From: a virus
Taxonomy: Duplodnaviria; Heunggongvirae; Uroviricota; Caudoviricetes
Virus record (IMG/VR): IMGVR_UViG_2651869748_000011
Strand: one strand, 5' to 3'
Length of the DNA stretch: 15,748 nucleotides
Position numbers and translations under genes: made by a program. The notes below the pieces were generated by a model. It saw only the letters and a program-made list of their open reading frames with translations. It ran no database searches and was not told where the DNA came from. This document shows positions 1-15,748 of this stretch, one piece after another (position 1 is the first letter of the stretch; each line of letters begins with the position of its first letter).

Positions 1-246
1 TCAGTATTTCCCCGATACCTTGTGTGCAAATTGCATCAGATAGTTGATAGCCTTTTGTTTGTCGTTCTGGCTGAGTTCGTGCTTACCACAGAATACAGCC
101 ATTCCGAATCCGGCTTGTGATTGCGCCATCCCCATAGCAGCCATCACATCAGTACCGGAAAGAGAGTCAGAAGCCGTAGCCCGTGGTGAGTCGCTCATCA
201 TCGGGCTTTTTGGCGAATGAAATTTAGCTACGCTTTCGAGTCTCAT
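1..246 (-). CDS. Q: Late antiterminator Q, N-terminal fragment only (81 codons, then in-frame TGA at 1-3); likely inactivated
   Basis: The translation [44 protein letters not shown]...[10 protein letters not shown] matches my memory of the lambda Q N-terminus. Lambda Q is about 207 aa. The ATGA overlap with the upstream phosphatase stop matches lambda. The stop codon sits at the window edge. Confidence 0.8.
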
Positions 247-908
247 GCGCCTTCTCCCTGTACCTGAATCAATGTGAGGTTTCCGCAGAACACTGCGCCG
301 GTATCGATATACATCTGGTTGGCAAACTTGAGTGGTTTCACTGCTGGCGTATGACCAAAGATGAACGTGTCCGCACCTTTGATTTCTTTCACGATCCCGT
401 CTTGTGAGTTGCTGATTCGTTCGCGGTTCCAGATTACCTGCTGATGATCAACTGGTTTTCCAAACTCGTATTCGTCACAAGGATAATCGGCGTGGCAGAT
501 GACATATTTTTTATCTTTGCTCACCAGTTCGATGATTAACGGAAGTTCATCTGCTTTATGGGCAAGAGCTTTAGCCAGAATTTCTTTGTCGTAATCGAGA
601 TTAAAGAACCATCCACCGCCATTAAGCAGCCAGTGATTAACGTTTCCACGCTCTGATAAGCCATCAATCATCATTTGCTCATGGTTTCCACGTACAGCTC
701 TGAACCAGGGGAATGTGATTAATTCCAGGCATTCGACGTTCTCTGCACCACGATCAACCAAATCGCCCACCGAGATAAGCAGGTCTTTTTTGTTGTCGAA
801 TCCAATCGTATCCAGTTTGTTCATCAGGTTCGTGTAGCATCCGTGCAGATCGCCAACTACCCAAATATTTCGGTATTTGCTGCCATCAATTTTTTCGTAA
901 TAGCGCAT
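243..908 (-). CDS. ninI: Ser/Thr protein phosphatase (lambda PPase, NinI)
   Basis: From the internal Met, the sequence [25 protein letters not shown]...GDLVDRG...GNHE...GHTP carries the calcineurin-like metallophosphatase motifs (GDxHG, GDxVDRG, GNHE). It is near-identical to lambda phosphatase (221 aa). The ORF-track start at 983 is an upstream extension. Confidence 0.95.
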
Positions 909-1092
909 CTCTTTCACTCCATCCGCGATGAACCATAAGAACATCGTTGACGATGGCGTGCATTTTCCCGTCTTTATCATCAACGTATTTTCTGACCGTA
1001 CCGCGACTACATTTCAGTCTGCGTGCTACTTCTGTCTGGTTTCCGTATGCTTCAACGAGCATGTCTGGAATGGTTTTTACTGAGAACGTCAT
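886..1092 (-). CDS. ninH: NinH protein
   Basis: The 68-aa translation [37 protein letters not shown]... matches lambda NinH, which has an HTH-like segment. It sits between ninG and the phosphatase, as in lambda. Confidence 0.9.
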
Positions 1093-1700
1093 GCGGCCTC
1101 ACTTCTGCTATTTCGCAGGTCTTTGAGTTTCTGTTGGTACTCTGCCTTGATCGCCTTGCACTCTTCGACAGTCCAGCGATGGCGGCTATGGTTTGATTCG
1201 ATTTCGTCTACTGCTTCCTGCCCGATGCGGTTAATCAGTTCGACGCGATACGGAACGAGATTTCCGCTTTTGTGCTGGTTGCACACCACGCATTGCTTGT
1301 GAATATTGCGTTCATCAAATCGGAGTTGAGGTGCCGCAGCAGTTGTCCGGTAATGTCCGGCATCCCACTGAGCAGACGTGAGCGTTCCGCACGAGATACA
1401 TGGTAAGTCGCGGTCTCTTTCTCTGATGAAGGCGTTTACAGCTTGTTGGGCTTGTTTAATCCAGTAACTGCGGGGCTTTAAGGCGAGTTTTCGAATCTTC
1501 AGTTTATCTTTCTGTTTCTGCTCCTCTCGTCGTCGTTTCTTCTCTGCTGCTTTTTCCGCTTTTTCGCGTTCTTTGCTTCGTCGTTCCAGTGCTATCTTTG
1601 TTCCACACTCTGGAGAGCACCACCACTGATTAGCGAATGCAGGGTGAAACCATTCCCGACATTCTTCGTTTTTACATCGTCTTCGCGCTTGTTTAGCCAT
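1089..1700 (-). CDS. ninG: NinG / Rap recombination endonuclease
   Basis: The 203-aa translation [33 protein letters not shown]...[11 protein letters not shown]... is near-identical to lambda NinG (Rap). Its start overlaps the upstream stop (TAATG). Confidence 0.95.
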
Positions 1701-1969
1701 TATGGTTCGCTCCAGTAATTCTCAATTGCAGCAGCCATTCTCTGCATCCACTCTGCCAGCTTTAACGCGGCTTCTCTTTCAGAACCACATTTAGGGAAAT
1801 CCTTCATTTCCATGCTGGCCTTATATGTTCTGAATGCCAGGTCTCCGGTAATAACCAGCTCCTGATCAAGCACCGAGCGTTTATTCCGGTGTTGAACGTA
1901 ATAGACAGATTCAGTCCGCATTTCTTCTCTGTCTTTTTTGAAGGAAATAAGCTCAGAGAAATCACTCAT
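1700..1969 (-). CDS. Hypothetical nin-region protein (89 aa), not present in lambda
   Basis: This is an intact ORF. It is translationally coupled on both sides: its ATG overlaps the ninF stop, and its stop overlaps the ninG ATG. I recognise no family. Confidence 0.6.
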
Positions 1970-2138
1970 CGTCTTCTTCCTCGTACATTGAGCTATTCGG
2001 ATCGCTCATCAGTTCTGCGCAGCAGTGCTCACACACATGAACTTCCAGCACATGCAGCTTCTGACCGCAGTTAGCGCACGTTAAAGCCCGCTCGACGCTT
2101 TCTTTCTGGTATTGAAGAGATTGGGATGGGCTAAGCAT
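1962..2138 (-). CDS. ninF: NinF-like small zinc-ribbon protein (58 aa); below the ORF-track size cut-off
   Basis: Manual translation of the minus strand gives [58 protein letters not shown]. From ESVERALTCANCGQKLHVLEVHVCEHCCAELMSDPNSSM onward it matches lambda NinF, with CxxC...CxxC. Its start overlaps the upstream stop. Confidence 0.8.
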   Translation of the reverse strand: MLSPSQSLQYQKESVERALTCANCGQKLHVLEVHVCEHCCAELMSDPNSSMYEEEDDE

Positions 2139-2490
2139 TATTGGCGTCCTGCATCATGAGAAAGACAATCATGGCGGCGCGGAGGGAATTTTCATGTATA
2201 GCTAGCTTAGATTTACAGTCGGCCACACCACGTGCACCCCACTCGTCTTCATCGAGATTGATGATGCTAATCCTGTACTTCTCAATAATCGGCCATGAGG
2301 CGCTAGGATCATTGCAGTAGTCAGGCAAAGGGTTTAATGGCTCAAAAGTTGTATCAGCATTTCCGTAATACCATTTGTTGGTGTTATTCCCTGATGTTTC
2401 CGGTTTACATGCCCAAAGGCCTTTAAAAATTATGTCTCCTACCATTCTGTTAATTTCAAAATCACTTAACTGTGAATAATCCATTGTCAT
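2131..2490 (-). CDS. NinX-like phage protein (DUF2591-type), nin-region accessory gene
   Basis: The translation [18 protein letters not shown]...[29 protein letters not shown] resembles NinX/DUF2591 proteins of P22-like and lambdoid phages, from memory. The ATG at 2490 forms an ATGA overlap with the ninE stop. An alternative ATG lies at 2484. Confidence 0.6.
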
Positions 2491-2663
2491 TTCCTCGCAC
2501 GATGTCTTAGCCACCGGATATCCCACAGGTGAGCCGTGTAATTGAAGGTTTTTACGTCAGATTCTTTTGGGATTGGCTTGCGTTTATTTCTGGAGCGTTT
2601 CGTTGGAAGGTATTTGCAGTTTTCGCAGATGATGTCGGTGATACTTCGTCGCTGTCGTCTCAT
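2487..2663 (-). CDS. ninE: NinE protein
   Basis: The internal start gives [58 protein letters not shown] (58 aa), matching lambda NinE. It has an ATGA overlap with the methyltransferase stop. Confidence 0.85.
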
Positions 2664-3187
2664 GCCGCCCTCCTGACGCCCTGCCCGATCGCCATCAATG
2701 CCGCTTTGGATACGGTAGTAAACATCCGTCGAGGACTGATGAACGGTCGCCAAATCAGCAGCATGGAACCTTTGCTGTTTCCCTTCTTCTCCAGCCCTGT
2801 CGATGGTTCGATAAAATTAATCCGTCCATCAGTGATAATACGAACTTCGTCAACACTCTCCAGAGCCTTGCTGAACCATCCGACAGACATATCCTCTGGC
2901 ACAAGCATCACTACCGTCTGTCGCTGTTGTATGCACTGCTCAGCGGCTTTTTCCACCCACGGCCTGATATTGCTGTACGGTGGGTTATTCCAGATTGCAC
3001 CGTGGCTTACCCACTCAGAATTGAGCGCGTCGTCGGCCTCAGTTAACCAGTGAGCGCACAGAGCATTTTTGTCGCTCGCTGCCGAATCCAGCCAGAATCC
3101 AAACTCAATATCCAGTGCATCAAAAAGCCAAAGCGGCGTTTGCCAGCAGTCCTTGTCGTGTGCTGGCGTATTTGATTTGATAGTCAT
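2660..3187 (-). CDS. Phage DNA N6-adenine methyltransferase (Dam-like, phage N-6-MTase family)
   Basis: The translation [37 protein letters not shown]...NPPY contains the DPPY/NPPY catalytic motif and the CWQTP motif typical of the phage Dam family. It has an ATGA overlap with the ninB stop and occupies the lambda ninC/D position. Confidence 0.85.
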
Positions 3188-3624
3188 GCAGCCCGATCTC
3201 CCCATCTCGCTTTCCACTCCAGAGCCAGTCTCGCTTCGTCTGACCACTTAACGCCACGCTCTGTACCGAATGCCTGTATAAGCTCTAATAGCTCCGCAAA
3301 TTCGCCTACACGCATCCTGCTGGTTGACTGGCCTATTACCACAAAGCCATTCCCGGCAAGGTTAGGAACAACATCCTGCTGCTTTAATGCTGCGGTAAAC
3401 ACACACTTCCAGCTTTCTGCATCCAGCCAGCGACCATGCCATTCAACCTGACGAGAGACGTCACCTAAGCAGGCCCATAGCTTCCTATTTTGGTCTAAGC
3501 TGCGGTTGCGTTCCTGAATGGTTACTACGATTGGTTTGGTTGGGTCTGGAAGGATTTGCTGTACTGCGTGAATAGCGTTTTGCTGATGTGCTGGAGATCG
3601 AATTTCAAAGGTTAGTTTTTTCAT
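3184..3624 (-). CDS. ninB: NinB (Orf) recombination mediator
   Basis: From the internal Met, MKKLTFEIRSPAHQQNAIHAVQQILPDPTKPIVVTIQERNRSLDQNRKLWA... (146 aa) matches lambda NinB. Confidence 0.95.
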   Translation of the reverse strand: MKKLTFEIRSPAHQQNAIHAVQQILPDPTKPIVVTIQERNRSLDQNRKLWACLGDVSRQVEWHGRWLDAESWKCVFTAALKQQDVVPNLAGNGFVVIGQSTSRMRVGEFAELLELIQAFGTERGVKWSDEARLALEWKARWGDRAA

Positions 3625-3640
3625 GACTTCCCTCTCCCCC

Positions 3641-3672
3641 AAATAAAAAGGCCTGCGATTACCAGCAGGCCT
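3641..3672 (-). terminator. Intrinsic terminator tR2 between ren and ninB
   Basis: The minus strand reads AGGCCTGCtggtaatcGCAGGCCT followed by TTTTTATTT, an 8-bp GC-rich stem plus a U-tract. It has the same sequence and position as lambda tR2. Confidence 0.8.
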
Positions 3673-3697
3673 GTTATTAGCTCAGTAATGTAGATGG

Positions 3698-3988
3698 TCA
3701 TCTTTTAACTCCATATACCGCCAATACCCGTTTCATCGCGGCACTCTGGCGACACTCCTTAAAAATCAGGTTCGTGCTCATCTTTCCTTCCCGTTCTTCC
3801 CTGGTAGCAAACCGGTAATACACCGTTCGCCAGACCTTACCTTCGATAACCAGAAGACCTGCCCGTGCCATTTTAGCCGCGGCCTGATTTATGCTGGTTA
3901 CTGTTGCGCCTGTTAGCGCGGCAACGTCCGGCGCACAGAAGCTATTATGCGTCCCCAGGTAATGAATAATTGCCTCTTTGCCCGTCAT
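3698..3988 (-). CDS. ren: Ren protein (Rex exclusion escape)
   Basis: The 96-aa translation MTGKEAIIHYLGTHNSFCAPDVAALTGATVTSINQAAAKMARAGLLVIEGK... matches lambda Ren. It has an ATGA overlap with the P stop. Confidence 0.95.
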   Translation of the reverse strand: MTGKEAIIHYLGTHNSFCAPDVAALTGATVTSINQAAAKMARAGLLVIEGKVWRTVYYRFATREEREGKMSTNLIFKECRQSAAMKRVLAVYGVKR

Positions 3989-4686
3989 ACACTTGCTCCT
4001 TTCAGTCCGAACTTAGCTTTAATTTCTGCGATCTTCGCCAGAGCCTGTGCACGATTTAGAGGTCTACCGCCCATAACAGGAAGTTGTTTTACTGGTTCAG
4101 GTATCGTCTCACCACGGTTAATTCGCGCTGTCATACAGGTCAGTTCATCGGCAGCCTTGCGCCGTAATTCCGCATCAGTAAGCGCATTGGCCCGCATGTT
4201 CTGATACAGGTTGGTAACCAGCCAGTAGTGCGCGTTTGATTTCCACGGATAAGACTCCGCATCCGGATACAGGCCTCGCTTCCGGCAATACTCGTAAACC
4301 ATATCAACCAGCTCGCTGACGTTTGGCAGTCCGGCGATAACGGATGCTTCTTCCCGGCACCATGCAACAAACTGCCCGGGTGATGGCAGAAATGGTCGAT
4401 TCTGCCGACGGGCTACGCGCATTCCTGCGTTAACCTGTTCCATCGTGGTGATCCCGTTTTCCCGAAAAGCCAGAACCCACTGGCGACGGATTTCGTTCAC
4501 TTCGTTCTGGTCACGGTTAGCCAGGCTCGCCGGGAAAGTTGCCAGTAACTGGCTGAACACACCGTTGATGATCTGCGCTACCTGCTGTACCTGCGGCTTT
4601 TCGTCGTACTGTTCCGGCATGTTGTTGGCGATCCGACGCATCTGCTCACGGTCAAAGTTAACCATCTGTGCGGCGATGTTTTTCAT
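3985..4686 (-). CDS. P: Replication protein P (DnaB helicase loader)
   Basis: The 233-aa translation MKNIAAQMVNFDREQMRRIANNMPEQYDEKPQVQQVAQIINGVF... matches lambda P. Confidence 0.97.
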   Translation of the reverse strand: MKNIAAQMVNFDREQMRRIANNMPEQYDEKPQVQQVAQIINGVFSQLLATFPASLANRDQNEVNEIRRQWVLAFRENGITTMEQVNAGMRVARRQNRPFLPSPGQFVAWCREEASVIAGLPNVSELVDMVYEYCRKRGLYPDAESYPWKSNAHYWLVTNLYQNMRANALTDAELRRKAADELTCMTARINRGETIPEPVKQLPVMGGRPLNRAQALAKIAEIKAKFGLKGASV

Positions 4687-5582
4687 AGATCCACCCCGTA
4701 AATCCAGTCTGTGTTTGTCAGGTCGAGTTTTGGTTTGCTGGCTGTCACGACTGCCTGTTGCTTGTTACGGTTGATTTCGAGCTGGGTCCACTTGTCGCGG
4801 AGTTTGGCCGGACTAAGCACGTTACCGGACCAGAAGTTGTCCTGGCATGCCCAGCGGAACAGCACGCACATGTCGCGGTGGTTACGTCCGTCACGTTCAC
4901 GCATCAGGCGGATATCGTTAGCCCACCCTGCAAAATTCGGTTTTCTGGCTGATGGCGCGATGGTCTTCACCATGTCAAACATCCACTCTGCGGCGGTCAG
5001 GTCTTCTGCTGTCCCCCACTTGCTGCCGCTCTGAATTGCAGCATCCGGTTTCACCACAGAAAGATCGTTTTCTGGCTGGTCAGAGGATTCGCCAGAATTC
5101 TCTGACGAATAATCTTTTCTTTTTTCTTTTGTAATAGTGTCTTTTGTGTCCCTCTGTTTTGAGGGATAGCAATCCCCCAATTTGAGGGATGTTTTATCCC
5201 TCGTTTTAGGGGATTTTCCCTCGTTTTGAGGGATACACCATTCTGAGATGTTTTTATTTGGTCCAAACATGCCGCCTTGCTGCTTGATAATATTCATTCT
5301 GACGAGTTCTAACTTGGCTTCATTGCACCGTTTGACGGGTAACTTTGTAATCTCGCTAAGTTGAGAATCGGTGACTCTGTCCATTGGTTTATTCCACCCA
5401 TAGGTTTTACGCAGAATGGCAAGCAGCACTTTAAACTGTCGCTTGGTCAGATCTGCGCCCGAATAAGCCTCAAGCAGCATATTTGATAGTCTGGCGTAAC
5501 CATCATCGAGATCTGCCACATTACGCTCCTGTCCGGCAAAGTTACCTCTGCCGAAGTTGAGTATTTTTGCTGTATTTGTCAT
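4683..5582 (-). CDS. O: Replication initiator O
   Basis: The 299-aa translation MTNTAKILNFGRGNFAGQERNVADLDDGYARLSNMLLEAYSGADLTKRQFKVLLAILRKTYGWNKPMDR... matches lambda O. The gene contains the ori iterons. Confidence 0.97.
   Translation of the reverse strand: MTNTAKILNFGRGNFAGQERNVADLDDGYARLSNMLLEAYSGADLTKRQFKVLLAILRKTYGWNKPMDRVTDSQLSEITKLPVKRCNEAKLELVRMNIIKQQGGMFGPNKNISEWCIPQNEGKSPKTRDKTSLKLGDCYPSKQRDTKDTITKEKRKDYSSENSGESSDQPENDLSVVKPDAAIQSGSKWGTAEDLTAAEWMFDMVKTIAPSARKPNFAGWANDIRLMRERDGRNHRDMCVLFRWACQDNFWSGNVLSPAKLRDKWTQLEINRNKQQAVVTASKPKLDLTNTDWIYGVDL
5105..5234. repeat. Lambda-type replication origin inside O: four O-binding iterons (5149-5233) plus an adjacent AT-rich unwinding region (5105-5147)
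   Basis: Four internally palindromic repeats of about 18 bp are present: tccctctgttttgaggga, atcccccaatttgagggat, atccctcgttttaggggat and tccctcgttttgaggga. They are flanked by aataatcttttcttttttcttttgtaatagtgtctttt. Confidence 0.9.
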
Positions 5583-5592
5583 AATGACTCCT

Positions 5593-5669
5593 GTTGATAG
5601 ATCCAGTAATGACCTCAGAACTCCATCTGGATTTGTTCAGAACGCTCGGTTGCCGCCGGGCGTTTTTTA
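5593..5669 (+). ncRNA. oop: oop antisense RNA (overlaps the 3' end of cII)
   Basis: The sequence GTTGATAGATCCAGTAATGACCTCAGAACTCCATCTGGATTTGTTCAGAACGCTCGGTTGCCGCCGGGCGTTTTTTA matches the 77-nt lambda oop RNA with its terminator hairpin. The upstream Po elements are TTGCTG..CATAAT. Confidence 0.85.
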
Positions 5670-5908
5670 TTGGTGAGAATCGCAGCAACTTGTCGCGCCA
5701 ATCGAGCCATGTCGTCGTCAACGACCCCCCATTCAAGAACAGCAAGCAGCATTGAGAACTTTGGAATCCAGTCCCTCTTCCACCTGCTGATCTGCGACTT
5801 ATCAACGCCCACAGCTTCCGCTGTCTTCTCAGTTCCAAGCATTGCGATTTTGTTAAGCAACGCACTCTCGATTCGTAGAGCCTCGTTGCGTTTGTTTGCA
5901 CGAACCAT
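5615..5908 (-). CDS. cII: Transcriptional activator cII
   Basis: From the internal Met, MVRANKRNEALRIESALLNKIAMLGTEKTAEAVGVDKSQISRWKRDWIPKFSMLLAVLEWGVVDDDMARLARQVAAILTNKKRPAATERSEQIQMEF (97 aa) matches lambda cII. The ORF-track start at 5968 is an extension. Confidence 0.97.
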   Translation of the reverse strand: MVRANKRNEALRIESALLNKIAMLGTEKTAEAVGVDKSQISRWKRDWIPKFSMLLAVLEWGVVDDDMARLARQVAAILTNKKRPAATERSEQIQMEF

Positions 5909-5918
5909 ATGTAAGTAT
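5886..5918 (+). promoter_or_regulatory. PRE promoter with cII-binding TTGC-N6-TTGC repeat
   Basis: The sequence ttgcgtttgtttgc at 5886-5899 is followed by a -10-like aagtat. The arrangement and location over the cII start match lambda PRE. Confidence 0.7.
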
Positions 5919-5987
5919 TTCCTTAGATAACAATTGATTGAATGTATGCAAATAAATGCATACACCATAGGTGTGGTTTAATTTGAT

Positions 5988-6019
5988 GCCCTTTTTCAGG
6001 GCTGGGATGTGTAAGAGCG
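5988..6019 (-). promoter_or_regulatory. nutR (boxA CGCTCTTA plus boxB hairpin); the tR1 region follows downstream
   Basis: The minus strand reads CGCTCTTACACATCCCAGCCCTGAAAAAGGGC. boxB is GCCCTGAAAAAGGGC at 5988-6002 and boxA is at 6012-6019. The site lies between cro and cII as in lambda. Confidence 0.85.
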
Positions 6020-6027
6020 GGAATATC

Positions 6028-7383
<1,356 letters not shown>

Positions 7384-7433
7384 TCCCCACCTCAATCTCG
7401 ATAACCAAAAAACAAACTATTTTCCGTTTAAAA

Positions 7434-7507
7434 ACAATGGAGTTTGTTTTTCATGCCCCTTTTTTACAATATTTCTTGTTTACAACATACAATCTTTCTT
7501 GTAATTT
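7434..7507 (+). promoter_or_regulatory. 434 left operator (three ACAA-N6-TTGT sites at 7434-7447, 7466-7479 and 7489-7502) and the PL promoter
   Basis: The sites are acaatggagtttgt, acaatatttcttgt and acaatctttcttgt. A sigma70 promoter overlaps them: TTTACA (7479-7484), a 17-nt spacer, then TAATTT (7502-7507), reading towards N. Confidence 0.8.
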
Positions 7508-7547
7508 TAAGCCATCAGCAGGACGCACTGACCACCATTGAAGGTGA

Positions 7548-7578
7548 TGCTCTTAAAAATTAAGCCCTGAAGAAGGGC
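7548..7578 (+). promoter_or_regulatory. nutL (boxA-like TGCTCTTAA plus boxB GCCCTGAAGAAGGGC)
   Basis: The sequence tgctcttaaaaattaaGCCCTGAAGAAGGGC is as in lambda nutL, with one mismatch in boxA. It lies between PL and N. Confidence 0.85.
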
Positions 7579-7736
7579 AGCATTCAAAGCAGAAGGCTTT
7601 GGGGTGTGTGATACGAAACGAAGCATTGGCCGGAAGTGCGAATCCGGATTAGCTGCAAATGAGCCAATCGTGGGGTGTTTTCGTTCAGGACTACGACTCA
7701 CACACACCACCAAAGCTAACTGACAAGAGAATCCAG

Positions 7737-8060
7737 ATGGATGCACAAACACGCCGCCGCGAACGTCGCGCAGAGAAACAGGCTCAATGGAAAGTAGCAA
7801 ATCCCCTGTTGGTTGGGGTAAGCGCAAAACCAGTTAACCGCCCTATTCTCTCGCTGAATCGCAAACCGAAATCACGAGTAGAAAGCGCACTGAATCCGAT
7901 AGACCTTACAGTGCTGGCTGAATACCACGAACAGATTGAAAGCAACCTGCAACGTATTGAGCGCAAGAATCAGCGCACATGGTACAGCAAGCCTGGCGAA
8001 CGCGGCATAACATGCAGTGGACGCCAGAAAATTAAGGGAAAATCGATTCCTCTTACCTAG
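7737..8060 (+). CDS. N: Antitermination protein N
   Basis: From the internal Met, MDAQTRRRERRAEKQAQWKVANPLLVGVSAKPVNRPILSLNRKPKSRVESALNPIDLTVLAEYHEQIESNLQRIERKNQRTWYSKPGERGITCSGRQKIKGKSIPLT (107 aa) has the arginine-rich motif. It is about 97% identical to lambda N, from memory. Confidence 0.95.
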   Translation: MDAQTRRRERRAEKQAQWKVANPLLVGVSAKPVNRPILSLNRKPKSRVESALNPIDLTVLAEYHEQIESNLQRIERKNQRTWYSKPGERGITCSGRQKIKGKSIPLT

Positions 8061-8615
8061 TTACTTAGATATTGGCCTTGGCTTTATCTCAATATTATAT
8101 GGATCATAGCTGGCAACTAATTCAGTCCAGTAAATATCCTCAATAGGGAATAATATATGCTTCCCGTTCCATCGGGAAAAAGTTTTGTTCAACACACCAA
8201 GCTCAATCAACTCACTAATGTATGGGAATTGTTTTGATGTAACCACATACTTCCTGCCTTCATTAAGGGCTGCGCACAAAACCATAGATTGCTCTTCTGT
8301 AAGGTTTTGAATTACCGATCGCACTTTATCGTTTTGCATCTTAATGCGTTTTCTTAGCTTAAATCGCTTATATTTGGCGCTGGCAATAGCTGATAATCGA
8401 TGCACATTAATTGCTAGCGAAAATGCAAGAGCAAAGACGAAAACATGCCACACATGAGGAATACCGATTCTCTCATTAACATATTCAGGCCAGTTATCTG
8501 GGCTTAAAAGCAGAAGTCCAACCCAGATAACGATCATATACATGGTTCTCTCCAGAGGTTCATTACTGAACACTCGTCCGAGAATAACGAGTGGATCCAT
8601 TTCTATACTCATCAA
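8061..8615 (-). CDS. sieB: Superinfection exclusion protein B (SieB), membrane protein
   Basis: The 184-aa ORF runs antisense to the PL operon between N and ral, as lambda sieB does. It has two hydrophobic helices (MYMIVIWVGLLLLS, VWHVFVFALAFSLAINV). The sequence matches my memory of lambda SieB. The true start may be the second Met (8612). Confidence 0.75.
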   Translation of the reverse strand: MMSIEMDPLVILGRVFSNEPLERTMYMIVIWVGLLLLSPDNWPEYVNERIGIPHVWHVFVFALAFSLAINVHRLSAIASAKYKRFKLRKRIKMQNDKVRSVIQNLTEEQSMVLCAALNEGRKYVVTSKQFPYISELIELGVLNKTFSRWNGKHILFPIEDIYWTELVASYDPYNIEIKPRPISK

Positions 8616-8989: not shown

Positions 8990-9109
8990 CAGAACAACAA
9001 AGCTGCCTGATAGTGGCCTTTATTTTTGGCATAAATAACAGAATAAACACTGCACTGAACCGCCCCGGGAATCCTGGAGACTAAACTCCCTGAGAAAGAG
9101 GTAAACAGG

Positions 9110-9436
9110 ATGACTAAAAATACTCGTTTTTCCCCTGAAGTCCGTCAACGGGCAGCCCGTATGGTTCTGGAAAGTCAGGGCGAATATGACTCACAATGGG
9201 CGACAATTTGTTCCATTGCTCCAAAGATTGGCTGTACGCCGGAGACTCTGCGTGTCTGGGTTCGCCAGCATGAGCGGGATACCGGGGGCGGTGATGGAGG
9301 GCTCACCACCGCTGAACGTCAGCGTCTGAAAGAGCTGGAGCGTGAAAATCGTGAACTGCGCCGCAGTAACGATATCCTTCGCCAGGCTTCCGCTTATTTT
9401 GCGAAGGCGGAGTTCGACCGCCTCTGGAAAAAATAA
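9110..9436 (+). CDS. IS629-like transposase OrfA (HTH, leucine-zipper region)
   Basis: The 108-aa translation is [57 protein letters not shown]...[34 protein letters not shown]. It ends in TGG AAA AAA TAA; the A6 run is the candidate -1 frameshift site. Confidence 0.95.
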
Positions 9437-10323
9437 TGCCGCTGCTGGATAAGCTGCGTGAGCAGTACGGGGTCGGACCGCTATGCAGCGAACTGCATAT
9501 TGCCCCGTCAACGTATTACCACTGTCAGCAACAGCGACATCATCCGGATAAACGCAGTGCCCGTGCGCAGCGCGATGACTGGCTGAAGAAAGAGATACAG
9601 CGCGTATACGATGAAAATCACAAGGTATACGGTGTGCGTAAAGTCTGGCGTCAGTTGTTACGGGAAGGAATCAGAGTGGCCAGATGCACTGTGGCACGTC
9701 TCATGGCGGTTATGGGACTTGCCGGTGTTCTCCGGGGTAAAAAGGTCCGCACTACCGTCAGCCGGAAAGCCGTTGCCGCATGCGACCGCGTAAACCGTCA
9801 GTTCGTGGCAGAACGTCCAGACCAGTTGTGGGTGGCTGATTTTACCTGGGTAAGCACATGGCAGGGCTTCGTTTATGTGGCGTTCATCATTGATGTGTTC
9901 GCCGGATACATCGTGGGATGGCAGGTCTCATCATCCATGGAAACAACATTCGTGCTGGATGCACTGGAGCAGGCGTTGTGGGCCCGTCGGCCGTCCGGCA
10001 CAATCCATCACAGTGATAAAGGTTCTCAGTATGTATCGCTGGCCTACACGCAGCGGCTTAAGGAAGCCGGATTACTGGCATCAACAGGGAGTACTGGCGA
10101 CTCGTATGACAACGCGATGGCGGAGAGCATCAATGGTCTTTACAAAGCGGAGGTAATACACCGTAAGAGCTGGAAAAACCGTGCAGAAGTGGAACTGGCC
10201 ACACTCACGTGGGTGGACTGGTATAACAATCGACGATTGCTGGAAAGGCTGGGCCATACTCCCCCGGCAGAAGCAGAAAAAGCTTATTATGCTTCCATCG
10301 GAAACGATGATCTGGCAGCCTGA
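9436..10323 (+). CDS. IS629-like transposase OrfB (DDE / rve catalytic domain)
   Basis: The 295-aa ORF is in the -1 frame relative to orfA (TAATG overlap). DDE-type motifs are present: WVADFTWV, HHSDKGSQY and DNAMAESINGLYK. Confidence 0.95.
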   Translation: MPLLDKLREQYGVGPLCSELHIAPSTYYHCQQQRHHPDKRSARAQRDDWLKKEIQRVYDENHKVYGVRKVWRQLLREGIRVARCTVARLMAVMGLAGVLRGKKVRTTVSRKAVAACDRVNRQFVAERPDQLWVADFTWVSTWQGFVYVAFIIDVFAGYIVGWQVSSSMETTFVLDALEQALWARRPSGTIHHSDKGSQYVSLAYTQRLKEAGLLASTGSTGDSYDNAMAESINGLYKAEVIHRKSWKNRAEVELATLTWVDWYNNRRLLERLGHTPPAEAEKAYYASIGNDDLAA

Positions 10324-10365
10324 GTTCACAGATAAAACACTCTCCAGGAAACCCGGGGCGGTTCA

Positions 10366-10554
10366 CTGCGTGTGTGGGTTCGTCAGCATGAGCGGGATAC
10401 CGGGAGTGGTGATGGTGGACTCACCACCGCTGAACGTCAGCGTCTGAAAGAGCTGGAACGTGAAAATCGTGAACTGCGCCGCAGTAACGATATCCTTCGC
10501 CAGGCTTCCGCTTATTTTGCGAAGGCGGAGTTCGACCGCCTCTGGAAAAAATAA
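10366..10554 (+). pseudogene. Truncated orfA remnant of the second IS629-like copy
   Basis: The in-frame remnant [62 protein letters not shown] corresponds to residues 47-108 of OrfA. The native start, RBS and HTH are absent. Confidence 0.8.
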
Positions 10555-11441
10555 TGCCGCTGCTGGATAAGCTGCGTGAGCAGTACGGGGTCGGACCGGT
10601 ATGCAGTGAACTGCATATTGCCCCGTCAACGTATTACCACTGTCAGCAACAGCGACATCATCCTGATAAACGCAGTGCCCGTGCTCAGCGCGATGACTGG
10701 CTGAAGAGAGAGATACAGCGCGTATACGATGAAAATCACAAGGTATACGGTGTGCGTAAAGTCTGGCGCCAGTTGTTACGCGAAGGTATCAGGGTGGCCA
10801 GATGTACAGTGGCGCGCCTCATGGCGGTTATGGGACTTGCCGGTGTTCTCCGGGGTAAAAAGGTCCGTACTACCGTCAGCCGGAAAGCCGTTTCCGCAGG
10901 CGACCGCGTAAACCGTCAGTTCGTGGCAGAACGTCCTGACCAGCTGTGGGTGGCTGATTTTACTTACGTCAGCACATGGCAGGGCTTCGTCTATGTGGCG
11001 TTCATCATTGATGTGTTTGCCGGATGTATCGTGGGGTGGCGAGTCTCATCGTCTATGGAAACGACATTCGTGCTGGATGCACTGGAGCAGGCGTTGTGGG
11101 CCCGTCGGCCGTCCGGCACAGTCCATCACAGTGATAAAGGTTCTCAGTATGTATCACTGGCCTATACGGAGCGACTAAAAGAAGCAAAACTGCTGGCATC
11201 AACAGGGAGTACAGGTGACTCGTATGACAACGCGATGGCGGAGAGCATCAATGGTCTTTACAAAGCGGAGGTAATACACCGTAAGAGCTGGAAAAACCGT
11301 GCAGAAGTGGAACTGGCCACACTCACGTGGGTGGACTGGTATAACAATCGACGATTGCTGGGAAGGCTGGGTCATATCCCTCCGGCAGAAGCAGAAAAAG
11401 CTTATTATGCTTCCATCAGAAACGATGATCTGGCAGCCTGA
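10554..11441 (+). CDS. IS629-like transposase OrfB (second copy, intact ORF)
   Basis: The 295-aa ORF is about 96% identical to 9436-10323 and keeps the DDE motifs. It probably cannot be made as an OrfAB fusion because orfA is truncated. Confidence 0.85.
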   Translation: MPLLDKLREQYGVGPVCSELHIAPSTYYHCQQQRHHPDKRSARAQRDDWLKREIQRVYDENHKVYGVRKVWRQLLREGIRVARCTVARLMAVMGLAGVLRGKKVRTTVSRKAVSAGDRVNRQFVAERPDQLWVADFTYVSTWQGFVYVAFIIDVFAGCIVGWRVSSSMETTFVLDALEQALWARRPSGTVHHSDKGSQYVSLAYTERLKEAKLLASTGSTGDSYDNAMAESINGLYKAEVIHRKSWKNRAEVELATLTWVDWYNNRRLLGRLGHIPPAEAEKAYYASIRNDDLAA

Positions 11442-11713
11442 GTTCACAGATAAAACACTCTCCAGGAAAACCGGGGCGGTTCAAATAACATTGTGCGTAC
11501 TCCTCTTGAGAAGGTGAGAACTATCGGTATCGCAGACACAGTTATGCCTACGGGTCTCCCCGCATCGGTCATTCTCAAAAGGTTTAAAATAGGGTTAGGT
11601 TTGATCACTCTGAACGATCAATCGAAGACATTACGATTGGAACAAACGATCAATAGGTATGTGGTTATTTGCTAAGCTGCGACAACCTTTACAAAGACAC
11701 TCAGGAATGTTTC

Positions 11714-12022
11714 ATGCCCAAATTAGCTATTAGCTTATTACTTTACTTGGCCTGCTTTTATGCAGTTGGATATGGCGCTGGATATATAACAGGTGGAATA
11801 ACTTGGCACACACTGTATATGCTTGAACGTATAATTACCGTAGCCCTACTTGCATTCATTCCAGTGTTTATCTTTGCGGCTTTATTAAATGCATCCAAAA
11901 GACAAGGAATAATAAAATCACTTTCTGTCTCAGCGATTAATTTAATCCCTTCGGCTATCGCATTACTTATAGGATTTACTGACGCAGTGACCAGAAAGTT
12001 TCTTACTTATTTTCTCGGTTAA
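11714..12022 (+). CDS. Small integral membrane protein (102 aa, about 3-4 TM helices), unknown function
   Basis: The translation is MPKLAISLLLYLACFYAVGYGAGYITGGITWHTLYMLERIITVALLAFIPVFIFAALLNASKRQGIIKSLSVSAINLIPSAIALLIGF... The RBS AGGAA lies 7 nt upstream. The gene is AT-rich relative to its neighbours. It is convergent with the minus-strand operon and overlaps it by 20 nt. Confidence 0.6.
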   Translation: MPKLAISLLLYLACFYAVGYGAGYITGGITWHTLYMLERIITVALLAFIPVFIFAALLNASKRQGIIKSLSVSAINLIPSAIALLIGFTDAVTRKFLTYFLG

Positions 12023-12194
12023 CTGACATATTGCGAATGACCAACTGTTCTATTAGCTCATTACGAGAATAAAATGGTCGGTCATTCGTAGCCGCTTTAT
12101 CCACGCCAAGCATCGACAATAGAATAGAAGTGGGAAGCCCCCGGTAACGCAGGGTCAAACGGCCTTCGGGAGTGCGTGGGTCAATCATAGCCAT
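12003..12194 (-). CDS. Hypothetical small protein (63 aa) downstream of the KilA-N gene
   Basis: The translation is MAMIDPRTPEGRLTLRYRGLPTSILLSMLGVDKAATNDRPFYSRNELIEQLVIRNMSVNRENK. GGAG lies 9 nt upstream of the ATG at 12194. The ORF-track start at 12209 is a GTG inside the KilA-N gene. The helix-extended-helix-like segment is only a guess. Confidence 0.45.
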   Translation of the reverse strand: MAMIDPRTPEGRLTLRYRGLPTSILLSMLGVDKAATNDRPFYSRNELIEQLVIRNMSVNRENK

Positions 12195-12196
12195 TG

Positions 12197-12682
12197 TTAA
12201 AGTCTCCACTCACAGCGACCGACACGTAGCTCCTCAAACTCCTCTTTCGAGACGAGTTGTCCAGCCCTGTAGTGCGATACCGTGTGCTTCTTAATGAATG
12301 CCTTAGAGTCCGGCGTGATGTCGTCCGAAGATGCTACAGCGGCCTGTACGCTGGCACTGGAGGTCATAGACACAAAGGCATCCGCTACAGCTATTCCGTA
12401 CTCAAAGTCCAGCCACTCGCCAAACTTGACGGCGGACGTGGGGTCAGCAAGCCATGACGTACCGAGGCGACCCATATCAACTTTCTTTATGCGGCGGTTT
12501 TTCTGCCCCATAAGATAGCGCCCGACTTTGGTCTGAGCGAAACGCTTAACCATTGTCTTCTCGGTGTCTTCTACCTTACCAATCTGAATACCGACCCGGC
12601 GAATTTCATCCAATCGGAACAATCCGTCTTGACTGGTGAGGTCCTGACCGAAGATATGGATAGTGTATTCTTGTTGAGACAT
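12197..12682 (-). CDS. KilA-N domain-containing protein (161 aa)
   Basis: The RBS is AAGGAG, 9 nt upstream. The segment ...RLGTSWLADPTSAVKFGEWLDFEYGIAV... matches the conserved GTW(v/l)hp..a..fa.WlsPef core of the KilA-N (PF04383-like) DNA-binding domain, from memory. Confidence 0.65.
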   Translation of the reverse strand: MSQQEYTIHIFGQDLTSQDGLFRLDEIRRVGIQIGKVEDTEKTMVKRFAQTKVGRYLMGQKNRRIKKVDMGRLGTSWLADPTSAVKFGEWLDFEYGIAVADAFVSMTSSASVQAAVASSDDITPDSKAFIKKHTVSHYRAGQLVSKEEFEELRVGRCEWRL

Positions 12683-12905
12683 ATCGTTGTACTCCTTTTA
12701 TCTGCATCCTGAAGCCGCATCCTGCCGCCTACTCAAAGCCCCCAACGATAGGGAGACGGCAGGCAACAAGACGCAGATAGAATGACTTTGAGATTTGATG
12801 ATTAGTGTCGGCGGTGGCACTTATTTAAAACGAAAGGACAACAGCATATTTCCGCATGACTTGACGCATCAAGGCCAGAGGCAGAAATAAGTATTTGCTC
12901 GGTGT

Positions 12906-12928
12906 CGTTCCTAAGGTGATAGTTTAGT
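12906..12928 (-). promoter_or_regulatory. Second, degenerate T7-family phage-RNAP promoter-like sequence (predicted +1 G at 12911)
   Basis: The minus strand reads ACTAAACTATCACCTTAGGAACG. Positions -17..-5 are identical to the element at 13470-13458. The sequence differs from it at -4, -3, +3, +5 and +6. It lies between the 60-aa ORF stop and the KilA-N leader. Confidence 0.4.
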
Positions 12929-13110
12929 CAAACAGTAATGAACTTCGGAGAACTTGACTCGAAAGTGTTCAGGACTTCCAGTGAGACCCGAAGTATGGAG
13001 ATCATATTATAGCGACCATAGTTTACTTCGGACTGACAGGACTGGAGGCTGGACTTAAAGTTCTTCTTATTGGAATTGTGATAACACAATCCATAACAAG
13101 ATAAACTCAT
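12928..13110 (-). CDS. Hypothetical small protein (60 aa)
   Basis: The ATG at 13110 is preceded by TGAGGAGACC. The translation is MSLSCYGLCYHNSNKKNFKSSLQSCQSEVNYGRYNMISILRVSLEVLNTFESSSPKFITV. The stop TGA overlaps the -17 end of the second promoter-like element. I recognise no family, so coding status is uncertain. Confidence 0.35.
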   Translation of the reverse strand: MSLSCYGLCYHNSNKKNFKSSLQSCQSEVNYGRYNMISILRVSLEVLNTFESSSPKFITV

Positions 13111-13447
13111 GGTCTCCTCAAGCCTGCTGGTCAAGACTCAAAGCTCCAACCTCAGACACCACCACTGGTCTAACCTCTTTGAGTTTCCGCCTGTCCACAA
13201 ATGGATGGCAGACCTCAGCAATGATGTCTTGGTTCTTCAGTTATCCGCGCAGCGATTATCACAGAGCCAACTTAAAGTCGGATGTGGTCTTCTGCTCCCC
13301 GCCTGTCAAAAGGGAAGATAACCTACGTTAAAAGAGAATGGTCTCAGGCCAAGGTGATTTAACACTAGGCGTCTGCGGATGGTTTCCAATCGGTCCGCTA
13401 CCGGAAGCCTGAGACTATATGAATGTGTGGGTCGGTGACTTAGGGCC

Positions 13448-13470
13448 TCTCCCTATAGTGATAGTTTAGT
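13448..13470 (-). promoter_or_regulatory. T7-family single-subunit RNAP promoter-like sequence, K1F-type specificity block (predicted +1 G at 13453)
   Basis: The minus strand reads ACTAAACTATCACTATAGGGAGA. Positions -8..+6 (TCACTATAGGGAGA) are identical to the T7 consensus TAATACGACTCACTATAGGGAGA. Positions -12..-8 (ACTAT) match the K1F-type promoter, as I recall it. The element is intergenic, 18 nt after the DUF4145 stop. Confidence 0.65.
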
Positions 13471-13488
13471 CCCCCTTCCCCGTCAGCC

Positions 13489-14148
13489 CTACTCGTTAGC
13501 GGCCTGTTGCTGTTCCCTCGCTTTCCGGTCCCGGTCTTCAATGCCCTTAAGCGCCCGTTCCGGCATACTGTTAAACATGGCTTCGACTTCTTTCGGTCGA
13601 GTAATCTGCTCAGTGACAATAATGTTCAGCAGCTTAAAGAGACCATGCGCCAACTGAGGGTCGTCATCAATGTTAATTTCACCCGGATGTACCGCCTGAT
13701 TGCCAACAATACGACAGATGTCAGCAGCTCGCTGGACCAGTGGAGACAGCCCTTTAGCTACAAGGGACTTAATGTCCGTGTCGATATGCTTCCCCGGCTC
13801 ACCGAGATGGACCATCAGCTTTTGAAGACTTAAGCGCAGGAGTGCGGCAGCGCCCTTAGGTGACAGATTAATGATGCTTCTGGCTTCCATGTAGTCGGAC
13901 TTACAGTCTTCTGGCATGTCAGGATTAGGCAGCTCAACACTACCAGCCGCAGGAATCATCATATTGCCTTTATACCAATAAGCATTTTCATAGCAATGTT
14001 GACAATATGATAAGTGGAAATCAGTTTCCATATAAGTAGAATGAGGCGCAACTCCCACCATTGACCGCCAGCTTTGCTTGGAATAAACACCACAGTGCGG
14101 GCAATTAAAAGCTTTACCATCAAACACCGCCGGATAATACTCAGCCAT
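13489..14148 (-). CDS. Zinc-ribbon plus DUF4145 domain protein (219 aa), candidate phage-defence/abortive-infection cargo
   Basis: The N-terminus has CPHCG...CQHC (a zinc ribbon). The C-terminal segment [18 protein letters not shown]...[31 protein letters not shown] fits the DUF4145 signature (L..I..L...g.l....lR..GN.aaH), from memory. The start ATG overlaps the integrase stop (ATGGCTGA). Confidence 0.7.
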
Positions 14149-15748
14149 TTACTCCAGTCTCCTTATAAACATCAGCCATCACATTAACCAATCTATCTAC
14201 CTCGACTTCTTTCGCATACCTGTCATAGGTAATCGACCCTGAGCTATGACCCATAATCGCCTGAGCATACGCTAACCCGACCCCATGTTGTTTTAACTGG
14301 GTCGCCACTGTATGTCTGAATGAGTGGAACGCTAAGCCGCTACGGTCAGCGAGGACTTTAGGTAGCAACGTTCTGTTAAACCATTTGCTCACCTGCTCAC
14401 CGTAGCCGTTCTTCATCAGCTTGAGGCCATCGAATACCATAGCATTATCACCCTTAGCCTTTCTACGGTCTTCCACGAGTGACATAAAGTCAGCCAATAA
14501 AAAACCATAAGCACCATCTACCAACGGGACACAGCGGTCACTATGGGCGTTCTTGATGCTCTTACCCGGTAGGCTGCTATCGTCTTCGTTGATATGGATA
14601 TACACGGTCCCGGCCTCAGTGGTCCTGACGTCTTTGACCTGAAGCTGAGCCACCTCATTAAGTCTTGCTCCAGTGATTGCCGCCAGAGCAGTGACGTAAT
14701 AGTGGTAGGGCTTACCTGAGGTCTTCTGAGAGTACGCTTTAGCGGCGACCAGTAGTTGCCCTACCTGCTCAGGACTGAACGCATCACGAGCGTCGGAGGC
14801 TTTACGCTGCGGGACTTTCAGCTCAAGACCTTCGGTCAGGTTCTTAGCTATCAAGTCGTTGCGTACCGCCCACTTAAACACAGCAGCCATCTTGATAAGA
14901 TATTTATTGTTGATGGTAACGACATCCAAACAGTCAGTCTTAGACTCCCGGTTCAGCAGGTCAGACAGCGGCATAGACTTAAAGCGTTGCTTGCGGTTCT
15001 TCGGTATCTGCTGGAGGACTTCACGGACCCTGAGCATATCTGAACGGGTCGCCTTGCTGACATCCTGAATATCCAGATAGTCGAATATCTCGATTAACGT
15101 AGAGTGAGACGCTCGGTTCTCGCTTAGGGTCGCTGGCTTCCAGTTCTGAGCGTTCTCCTGCTCGTACTGCTCAATGAGAGACGCGAGGGTCAGTGCTTTA
15201 GGCTCGGGGACTTCAGGCTCTGCCAATACAGATAGGGAGACGGACGGTCTTAGACTGCCAGTCTCAGGCTCAAGGTAAGACAACAGGCCAGAGGTATCGC
15301 CTTTGAGTCTATCCTGACACGCTTTAAGCACACCGATAACGTCATTGATATAGCGATGCTGGTCTACAGTCAGATGCTCAGTCGCTACAGCTTCCCGAAG
15401 GTTGGACTTGATGTCATCGTACTGGTCAACGTAGAGCTGGTAGGACTCAGGGTCGTTCAGGTCATCGCGGCTGACACTAAGTTCCCACTCGACAATGGTC
15501 TTCAGGTGTTCCCGTAGCTCCTCATAAGAGGCGTTAGGGTTGTCTGCGTGGATTGCTTTAAGTGCTGACTTGATGTGCCGTGAGTGAGCCATAGCGGTAC
15601 GTCTATCCTTGGTCCGTAAAGATACTGACGCTAGTTTATAACGGTTGTGAGAAGGAAGCGAAGCGGTCAGGCGACTAGTGGTCTTCATCCTAAGACGGAT
15701 GTAAAAGACACCGTTACGCTGATAAAGGTAGGTTCTTGAATTGAGCAT
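14141..15748 (-). CDS. Tyrosine recombinase / integrase with a long N-terminal extension (535 aa); the ATG is at the window edge
   Basis: The C-terminal catalytic motifs are present: [13 protein letters not shown] (Arg I), [13 protein letters not shown] (H-x-x-R) and [15 protein letters not shown] (His, Tyr nucleophile). The start codon occupies the last three bases of the window, so the true N-terminus could lie further upstream. Confidence 0.9.

Follow-up and report, generated by a model that had tools for sequence, protein, structure and literature searches.

What is the gene that directly follows the integrase of this mobile island, and does it act together with the phage-type promoters that lie immediately behind it? 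The window (the whole 15,748-nt stretch of DNA analyzed here, IMG/VR virus record IMGVR_UViG_2651869748_000011) carries on its minus strand, at positions 13489-14148, an open reading frame that begins with ATG and translates into 219 amino acids plus a stop codon. The initial annotation had described its product as a stand-alone zinc-ribbon/DUF4145 protein, HEPN-like and dependent on the R and H of a RIVGNQAVH motif, and had proposed that the gene, placed in the first cargo slot after an integrase, is a single-gene anti-phage factor, possibly as part of one system with the downstream promoter.

The architecture of the protein agrees with that description. Its N-terminal Cys4 zinc-ribbon sensor domain (ZFD, residues 1-65; 13954-14148, minus strand, with borders taken from PMC13017515) contains two CxxC pairs, C16-P-H-C19 and C49-Q-H-C52, whose Cys codons lie on the minus strand at 14101-14103, 14092-14094, 14002-14004 and 13993-13995. 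The ZFD is followed by a conserved linker (residues 66-79; 13912-13953, minus strand) and by a C-terminal DUF4145/divergent HEPN RNase domain (residues 80-219; 13492-13911, minus strand), recognized by Pfam and by its identity to the characterized RAZR-Ec protein. A Pfam search places DUF4145 (PF13643) at residues 88-163 (nt 13660-13887) with E=3.4e-13 and 49.9 bits, well above the curated cut-off of 23.1. The catalytic motif RIVGNQAVH occupies residues 146-154 (13687-13713, minus strand), with R146 encoded at 13711-13713 and H154 at 13687-13689.

Beyond its domains, the protein matches a known defense family over its full length. PADLOC model PDLC04109, PD-T7-4, aligns through positions 1-209 of 211 with residues 1-209 (E=1.7e-99, 329.5 bits), a full-length match too strong to be due to chance, and chain OA of PDB entry 9y9c (9y9c_OA) aligns without a gap from residue 1 to 219 on 1-219 (E=2.5e-112), with 164 of 219 residues identical (75%). 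We therefore regard the gene as very probably an allele of RAZR (formerly PD-T7-4), a one-protein abortive-infection system; judged by its sequence, it is an intact allele of a family that has already been characterized, and not a new gene. The RefSeq entry for the same protein, WP_024219477.1, annotated by PGAP as a 'DUF4145 domain-containing protein' at a 100%-identical locus (L001), can thus be given the name RAZR/PD-T7-4 and a known mechanism.

Entry 9y9c represents RAZR, the ring-activated zinc-finger RNase of Zhang et al. (Nature 2026, PMC13017515), who renamed PD-T7-4, found by Vassallo et al. 2022, and described it as a self-contained abortive-infection sensor and effector (PMC13017515). 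RAZR-Ec, from E. coli UMB1727, is by itself sufficient for defense, including against T7 and T3, and is triggered by the portals of T7, T3 and SECphi18 and by Gp77 of SECphi27; once activated, it forms a 24-mer around these ring-shaped phage proteins and cleaves single-stranded RNA non-specifically, which arrests translation and aborts the infection (PMC13017515). The ZFD sets specificity, the linker is required for function, and the DUF4145 domain is treated as a divergent HEPN RNase in which R146 and H154 are essential, as R146A and H154A abolish the defense conferred by RAZR-Ec (PMC13017515). Profile searches had previously assigned DUF4145 to the HEPN superfamily, and its zinc-ribbon fusions were listed at that time (Anantharaman et al. 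2013, PMC3710099). With the phenotype of PD-T7-4, now RAZR, experimentally established and published, the earlier reading of the gene as a HEPN-like, single-gene anti-phage factor in an integrase cargo slot was right, although for a family that was already characterized.

By homology to RAZR-Ec, the window allele would rest before infection as inactive dimers and linear oligomers, made by the host RNA polymerase from the integrase transcript and/or from a promoter within the 3' end of the gene for the integrase. Once a phage has infected the cell, the Cys4 zinc ribbon at the N-terminus would bind a large ring-shaped phage assembly, for which the RAZR-Ec models are the dodecameric portal of T7, T3 or SECphi18 and the 24-mer ring of Gp77. 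Twenty-four protomers would then assemble around the ring, the curvature positioning composite HEPN active sites (R146/H154), and non-specific cutting of single-stranded RNA would stop translation, so that no phage would be released from the infected cell. We infer by analogy that the window allele is active and senses a ring-shaped phage protein.

The allele diverges most strongly from RAZR-Ec in the sensor domain. Identity to RAZR-Ec is 60% in the ZFD, 93% in the linker (13 of 14 residues) and 80% in the HEPN part, and of 55 substitutions in total, 26 fall within the 65-residue sensor domain. The window allele retains V21 and R184, as well as the four Cys, R146 and H154, the last six residues being invariant across nine homologues. 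The sole change in the linker, N70S, falls inside an AGN triplet that the RAZR authors called non-conserved (PMC13017515). All five mapped residues of the RAZR-Ec/Gp77 interface are changed, namely R29S, Y31V, R35P, T41E and E43D, and in RAZR-Ec the substitutions R29A/E and R35E also abolish portal-dependent defense (PMC13017515). Because the contact residues differ, and because R29 and R35 are also needed for portal-dependent defense, the trigger of the window allele is, on this comparison, not transferable from RAZR-Ec by homology. With all five trigger-contact residues different, its trigger and phage range probably differ from those of the two tested alleles, RAZR-Ec and RAZR-Kv.

The dimer-dimer interface is altered as well, by D179T and D180E (13609-13614, minus strand), with V21 and R184 retained. 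The substitution D179A/D180A inactivates RAZR-Ec and breaks its higher-order oligomers (PMC13017515). Natural alleles carry D-D, D-E, T-E or S-E at residues 179-180 together with an invariant R184, the last three types being found in other genera, and the T/E combination of the window allele is also present in the Enterobacter and Buttiauxella gaviniae alleles. Among the nine homologues, mean pairwise identity is 42% in the ZFD and 21% in residues 26-48, as against 84% in the HEPN core, a divergence that fits the published role of the ZFD in specificity. The window allele thus offers a naturally diverged sensor surface that could be used to map how a zinc ribbon reads different phage rings.

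In general construction, the window protein and RAZR-Ec are alike: both have 219 amino acids, a Cys4 ribbon, a linker and a DUF4145/HEPN domain with R146/H154, and both genes share the 8-nt overlap with a 535-aa integrase and the type of island, the protein encoded in an O26:H11 island (L003) being identical to 9y9c and RAZR-Ec. They differ in the five Gp77-contact residues and at positions 179 and 180. A precedent for such divergence is RAZR-Kv of Klebsiella variicola (Zhang et al. 2026), a natural allele that is about as far from RAZR-Ec as the window allele (78% identity overall), diverges mostly in the ZFD, is active, and differs in phage range and in the escape mutations it tolerates; it defends against T7 (PMC13017515). 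The K. pneumoniae allele in locus L009 is 67% identical to the window protein. Other HEPN abortive-infection and defense RNases share with RAZR a helical HEPN-type domain, an R...H catalytic pair and a defense context, but their canonical motif is Rx4-6H, whereas in RAZR seven residues separate R146 from H154 (R-x7-H), and they are activated by an antitoxin, a nucleotide signal or a CRISPR complex instead of by wrapping a phage ring. DS-38, a HEPN plus Zn-finger protein of the DefensePredictor preprint, aligns with the window protein in the HEPN part only.

Immediately upstream of RAZR lies the tyrosine integrase that heads the island (535 aa; 14141-15748, minus strand; Pfam Phage_integrase E=8.2e-19, PHROG 1 E=2.9e-44), which adjoins a tRNA-Gly in L001, tRNA-Gly being the site of the island in complete genomes. 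The reported 8-nt overlap between the two genes is real: the sequence ATGGCTGA (14141-14148, minus strand) contains the integrase stop codon TGA at 14141-14143 and the RAZR start codon ATG at 14146-14148, and Shine-Dalgarno-like AAGGAG and GGAG motifs precede the RAZR start within the integrase gene. An 8-nt overlap (ATGGCTGA or ATGACTGA) is also found in E. coli, Enterobacter, Buttiauxella, Shimwellia and Edaphovirga loci; the Klebsiella integrase and RAZR genes adjoin without overlap (TAAATG), and the overlap in strain RIT691 is 17 nt long. Overlap with an integrase is typical of the PD-T7-4 family (PMC9519451). The arrangement is compatible with translational coupling to the integrase, which would seem possible but not required because published constructs work from 'native promoter' DNA, RAZR-Kv having been expressed from 200 bp of upstream DNA (PMC13017515). 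A scan of the minus strand upstream of RAZR returned no consensus sigma-70 promoter, and no terminator was found after the gene. No phage-type promoter lies upstream of RAZR either, which points to its production by the host polymerase before infection, and a host-transcribed RAZR would be well suited to guard the cell against phages that shut down transcription by the host.

Phage-type promoters do occur on the other side of the gene. P1 (ACTAAACTATCACTATAGGGAGA; 13448-13470, minus strand, +1 at 13453) matches at 23 of 23 positions the promoter annotated ahead of capsid gene 10 in the Citrobacter phage CR44b (Kayfunavirus); running from 13470 to 13448, it lies on the RAZR strand, begins 18 nt past the RAZR stop and is directed away from the gene. 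P2 (ACTAAACTATCACCTTAGGAACG; 12906-12928, minus strand, read from 12928 to 12906) lies 542 nt beyond P1 and carries a CACCTTAGG variant that it shares with the CR44b promoter at 9838-9860, and both promoters face a 161-aa ORF. The 17-mer AACTATCACTATAGGGA is present in three to four copies per genome, all on one strand, in about 20 Kayfunavirus-related viral contigs of 39-40 kb. A related 17-nt pattern, with one N and up to three mismatches allowed, matches the window twice, at P1 and at P2 (the latter with two mismatches), against 0.07 matches expected by chance. By these matches, P1 and P2 are genuine Kayfunavirus (K1F-like) promoters, of the kind read by single-subunit phage RNAPs.

The setting of these promoters becomes clearer in complete islands. 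In L001, a complete genome that is 100% identical to the island part of the window, 22-nt direct repeats at 10595-10616 and 18284-18305 bound an element of 7.7 kb, including IS3, at tRNA-Gly. Metagenome contigs (L084-L136) hold many whole elements of 6.2-6.9 kb, the island-length ones with att at both ends, in the order integrase, optional cargo, promoters, conserved genes of 63, 163 and 317 aa, a junction mimic and att. The 163- and 317-aa genes are conserved at 81-100% and the 63-aa gene at 55-95%, and this holds also for elements that lack RAZR and have an integrase of only about 31% identity.

The promoters themselves are not constant, as the specificity block behind RAZR varies with the island variant (L003, L004, L008, L009, L013, L079). 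A variant from Klebsiella and E. coli contains four promoters within 560 bp (L009 6640-7210; L079 reverse strand, 19-574 nt after RAZR). Among them are TAATACGACTCACTATAGGGAGA, which is exactly the T7 consensus, and AATTAGGGCACACTATAGGGAGA, which we take to be the K11 consensus. The Buttiauxella, Shimwellia and O26 islands carry CCCAC-type promoters.

Each complete island examined also carries, at its distal end, a 51-53-nt sequence that mimics the concatemer junction (terminal-repeat boundary) of T7-group phages; it is oriented like the promoters and precedes the distal att repeat by about 220 nt. The mimic was located at 10786-10836 in L001, 4092-4142 in L002 and 1513-1565 in L004 (all minus strand), and at 10475-10526 in L006, 10435-10486 in L008, 10383-10434 in L009 and 10464-10516 in L013. 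The island form reads AAAAATGTGAG..CATCTAATA..(26)..CCCCATAG, compared with AAAAGTTTGAG..CATCTCACAG..CCCCATAG at the junction boundary of CR44b and AAAAATCTGAG..TATCTCACAG..CCCCCATAG at that of T7. An unbiased blastn comparison of the island with the whole CR44b genome gave a single match outside the promoters (115 nt, 71%, E=4e-5), and it fell on the terminal-repeat boundary; a regular expression for the junction, written post hoc, matched once in each complete island examined, once at each T7 or Kayfunavirus junction in the collection and nowhere else in 1.63 Mb. The Klebsiella-type mimic resembles T7 and K11 and the E. coli-type mimic resembles CR44b, so that the flavor of the mimic tracks that of the promoters. 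The sequence ATCTGT, with which the T7 class II signal ATCTGTT begins, is absent between mimic and att in the seven islands inspected, and the metagenome contigs displayed no terminal overlap and no junction-att-integrase order, so no circle or concatemer was seen among them.

Given this context, the proximity of P1 to the RAZR stop codon might suggest one obligate multi-part defense system, in which RAZR would be a constitutive sensor/effector and the genes driven by the promoters its partners. Behind RAZR there are one to four phage-type promoters in 10 of 13 loci examined, including every examined locus with a full-length integrase, and both RAZR and the promoters concern T7-like phages. 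Yet RAZR-Kv protects as an ORF with 200 bp of upstream DNA only, needing nothing downstream, and RAZR-Ec alone is enough; the promoters are directed away from RAZR. The two parts also occur separately: the P1-P2 backbone is about 90% conserved in islands where an unrelated 202-aa gene fills the slot, homology with these sister islands starting exactly at the promoter, and RAZR is found without integrase or promoters at an E. coli tRNA-Thr and at Buttiauxella, Pantoea and Janthinobacterium loci. Among 5426 complete E. coli genomes, 324 contain RAZR-like genes and 162 the backbone, with both contiguous in 140. RAZR is missing from 17 of 27 metagenomic contigs that have an integrase match and the junction mimic; the 10 that contain it all do so behind an integrase of the window type, and it is absent from all 15 contigs whose integrase is more distant (about 30-50% identity). 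RAZR therefore goes with a single integrase lineage and is an accessory as far as the remainder of the element is concerned. An obligate system is thus very unlikely, and the initial annotation's suggestion of a single RAZR-promoter system is unsupported; RAZR and the promoters are modules that share a single mobile island. Less likely still, to the point of being scarcely credible, is that the ORF is not a defense gene but an accessory factor of the integrase (an excisionase, directionality factor or regulator), the gene overlap reflecting a shared function in recombination. The stop/start overlap is indeed conserved across genera, and PHROG 1305 labels relatives of the protein 'DNA binding protein', but defense and RNase activity have been published for a 75%-identical protein, sister islands with an intact integrase and a 93%-identical backbone hold the unrelated gene in the slot, and elements with another integrase family have no RAZR.

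A broader reading, which we put forward tentatively as plausible though short of probable, is that integrase and RAZR form the swappable head of Enterobacterales integrative elements of about 6.5 kb that are wired to virulent T7-like phages, the element being either a satellite of Autographiviridae or a defense island triggered by their RNAP. RAZR, transcribed by the host and made in advance, would then stand guard, the remaining genes would be switched on by the phage polymerase once host transcription is shut off, and the promoter arrays would change their specificity block with host and island variant (K1F-type, CCCAC-type, T7 consensus, K11-type). Complete islands have the integrase and att repeats bounding a small element that are expected of a satellite, and helper-derived signals in the form of Kayfunavirus-identical promoters and the junction mimic. 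They resemble PICMI of the Vibrionaceae and PLE of V. cholerae in their size of about 6.5 kb, integrase, att repeats, very small number of genes, lack of recognizable capsid genes and possession of sequences copied from a virulent phage group; unlike these, the island carries phage RNAP promoters and a T7-type junction mimic. A related but rather doubtful possibility is that the window allele is an active RAZR whose sensor is tuned away from Kayfunavirus, a cargo that attacks competing phages and spares the presumed helper of the island. Every ZFD contact residue differs from RAZR-Ec, and the O26 island L003, which encodes the RAZR-Ec protein, has K1F-type and CCCAC-type promoters only, none of the types of T7 and T3, two phages that RAZR-Ec stops; in addition, defense hotspots are common in satellites (PMC9122126). 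This idea is conjecture throughout, however, and the Klebsiella-type islands of L079 (E. coli) and L009 (K. pneumoniae) place an exact T7 consensus promoter beside RAZR, while RAZR-Kv, from K. variicola, defends against T7. If the carrier-element reading is true, the island would be the first satellite-like element tied to T7-like virulent phages, which would account for how frequently RAZR is joined to an integrase. A literature search, of incomplete coverage and hence no proof of novelty, found no islands or satellites with T7-type promoters or a junction mimic.

The window copy itself is truncated by IS3 at a break point at 11481-11486, and the distal part of the island is absent from it. 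Positions 11481-15748 equal L001 13882-18149 at 100% identity; missing from the window are the second att, the 163- and 317-aa genes and the junction mimic, and no att repeat was found in it. Two IS3-family copies (9053-11486) join the island to a lambdoid prophage (1-8600), whose genes resemble N, cI, cro, cII, O and P. As this arrangement of lambdoid prophage, IS3 and island occurs in no complete E. coli genome of the collection, it represents either an IS3-mediated rearrangement or an assembly join.

Between the two promoters, the conserved non-coding backbone of about 520 nt (12929-13447, minus strand) is never annotated in the E. coli genomes that contain it and is partly conserved in Buttiauxella and Shimwellia. 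Rfam gave no match within 11600-15748. RNAalifold predicts 22 pairs with compensatory changes, a suggestive result from only seven sequences; some of these changes fall in a predicted 5' stem-loop. The backbone could be an RNA or a replication origin, and no replication gene was recognized in the island.

The first gene downstream of P2, the 161-aa ORF (12197-12682, minus strand), lies in a variable slot, which in sister islands is filled by a Rha/Ant-type protein. It has no match in Pfam, PADLOC or PHROG, its homologues are confined to Enterobacterales, and its AlphaFold2 model (pLDDT 49) is too poor for a fold search. Over a short stretch that makes up 18% of the query, it shares 97% identity with a portion of an annotated Rha family regulator. 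The model of the conserved 317-aa core protein is likewise too poor for a fold search (pLDDT 37); its profile found nothing in the PDB, and hhalign detected no relation to the capsid protein of CR44b. The other small ORFs of the island have no match in PADLOC, Pfam, PHROGs or NCBIfam, which leaves the idea that the island is a defense hotspot unconfirmed by annotation.

The unrelated 202-aa protein that takes the place of RAZR in sister islands is encoded at 7920-8528 in L002 and 5671-6279 in L004 (both minus strand). It has no PADLOC match, but contains an RDAIAH motif with the canonical HEPN Rx4H spacing and a sub-threshold similarity to HEPN_RiboL-PSP (E=0.021), and may be a second HEPN-type defense gene in the RAZR slot.
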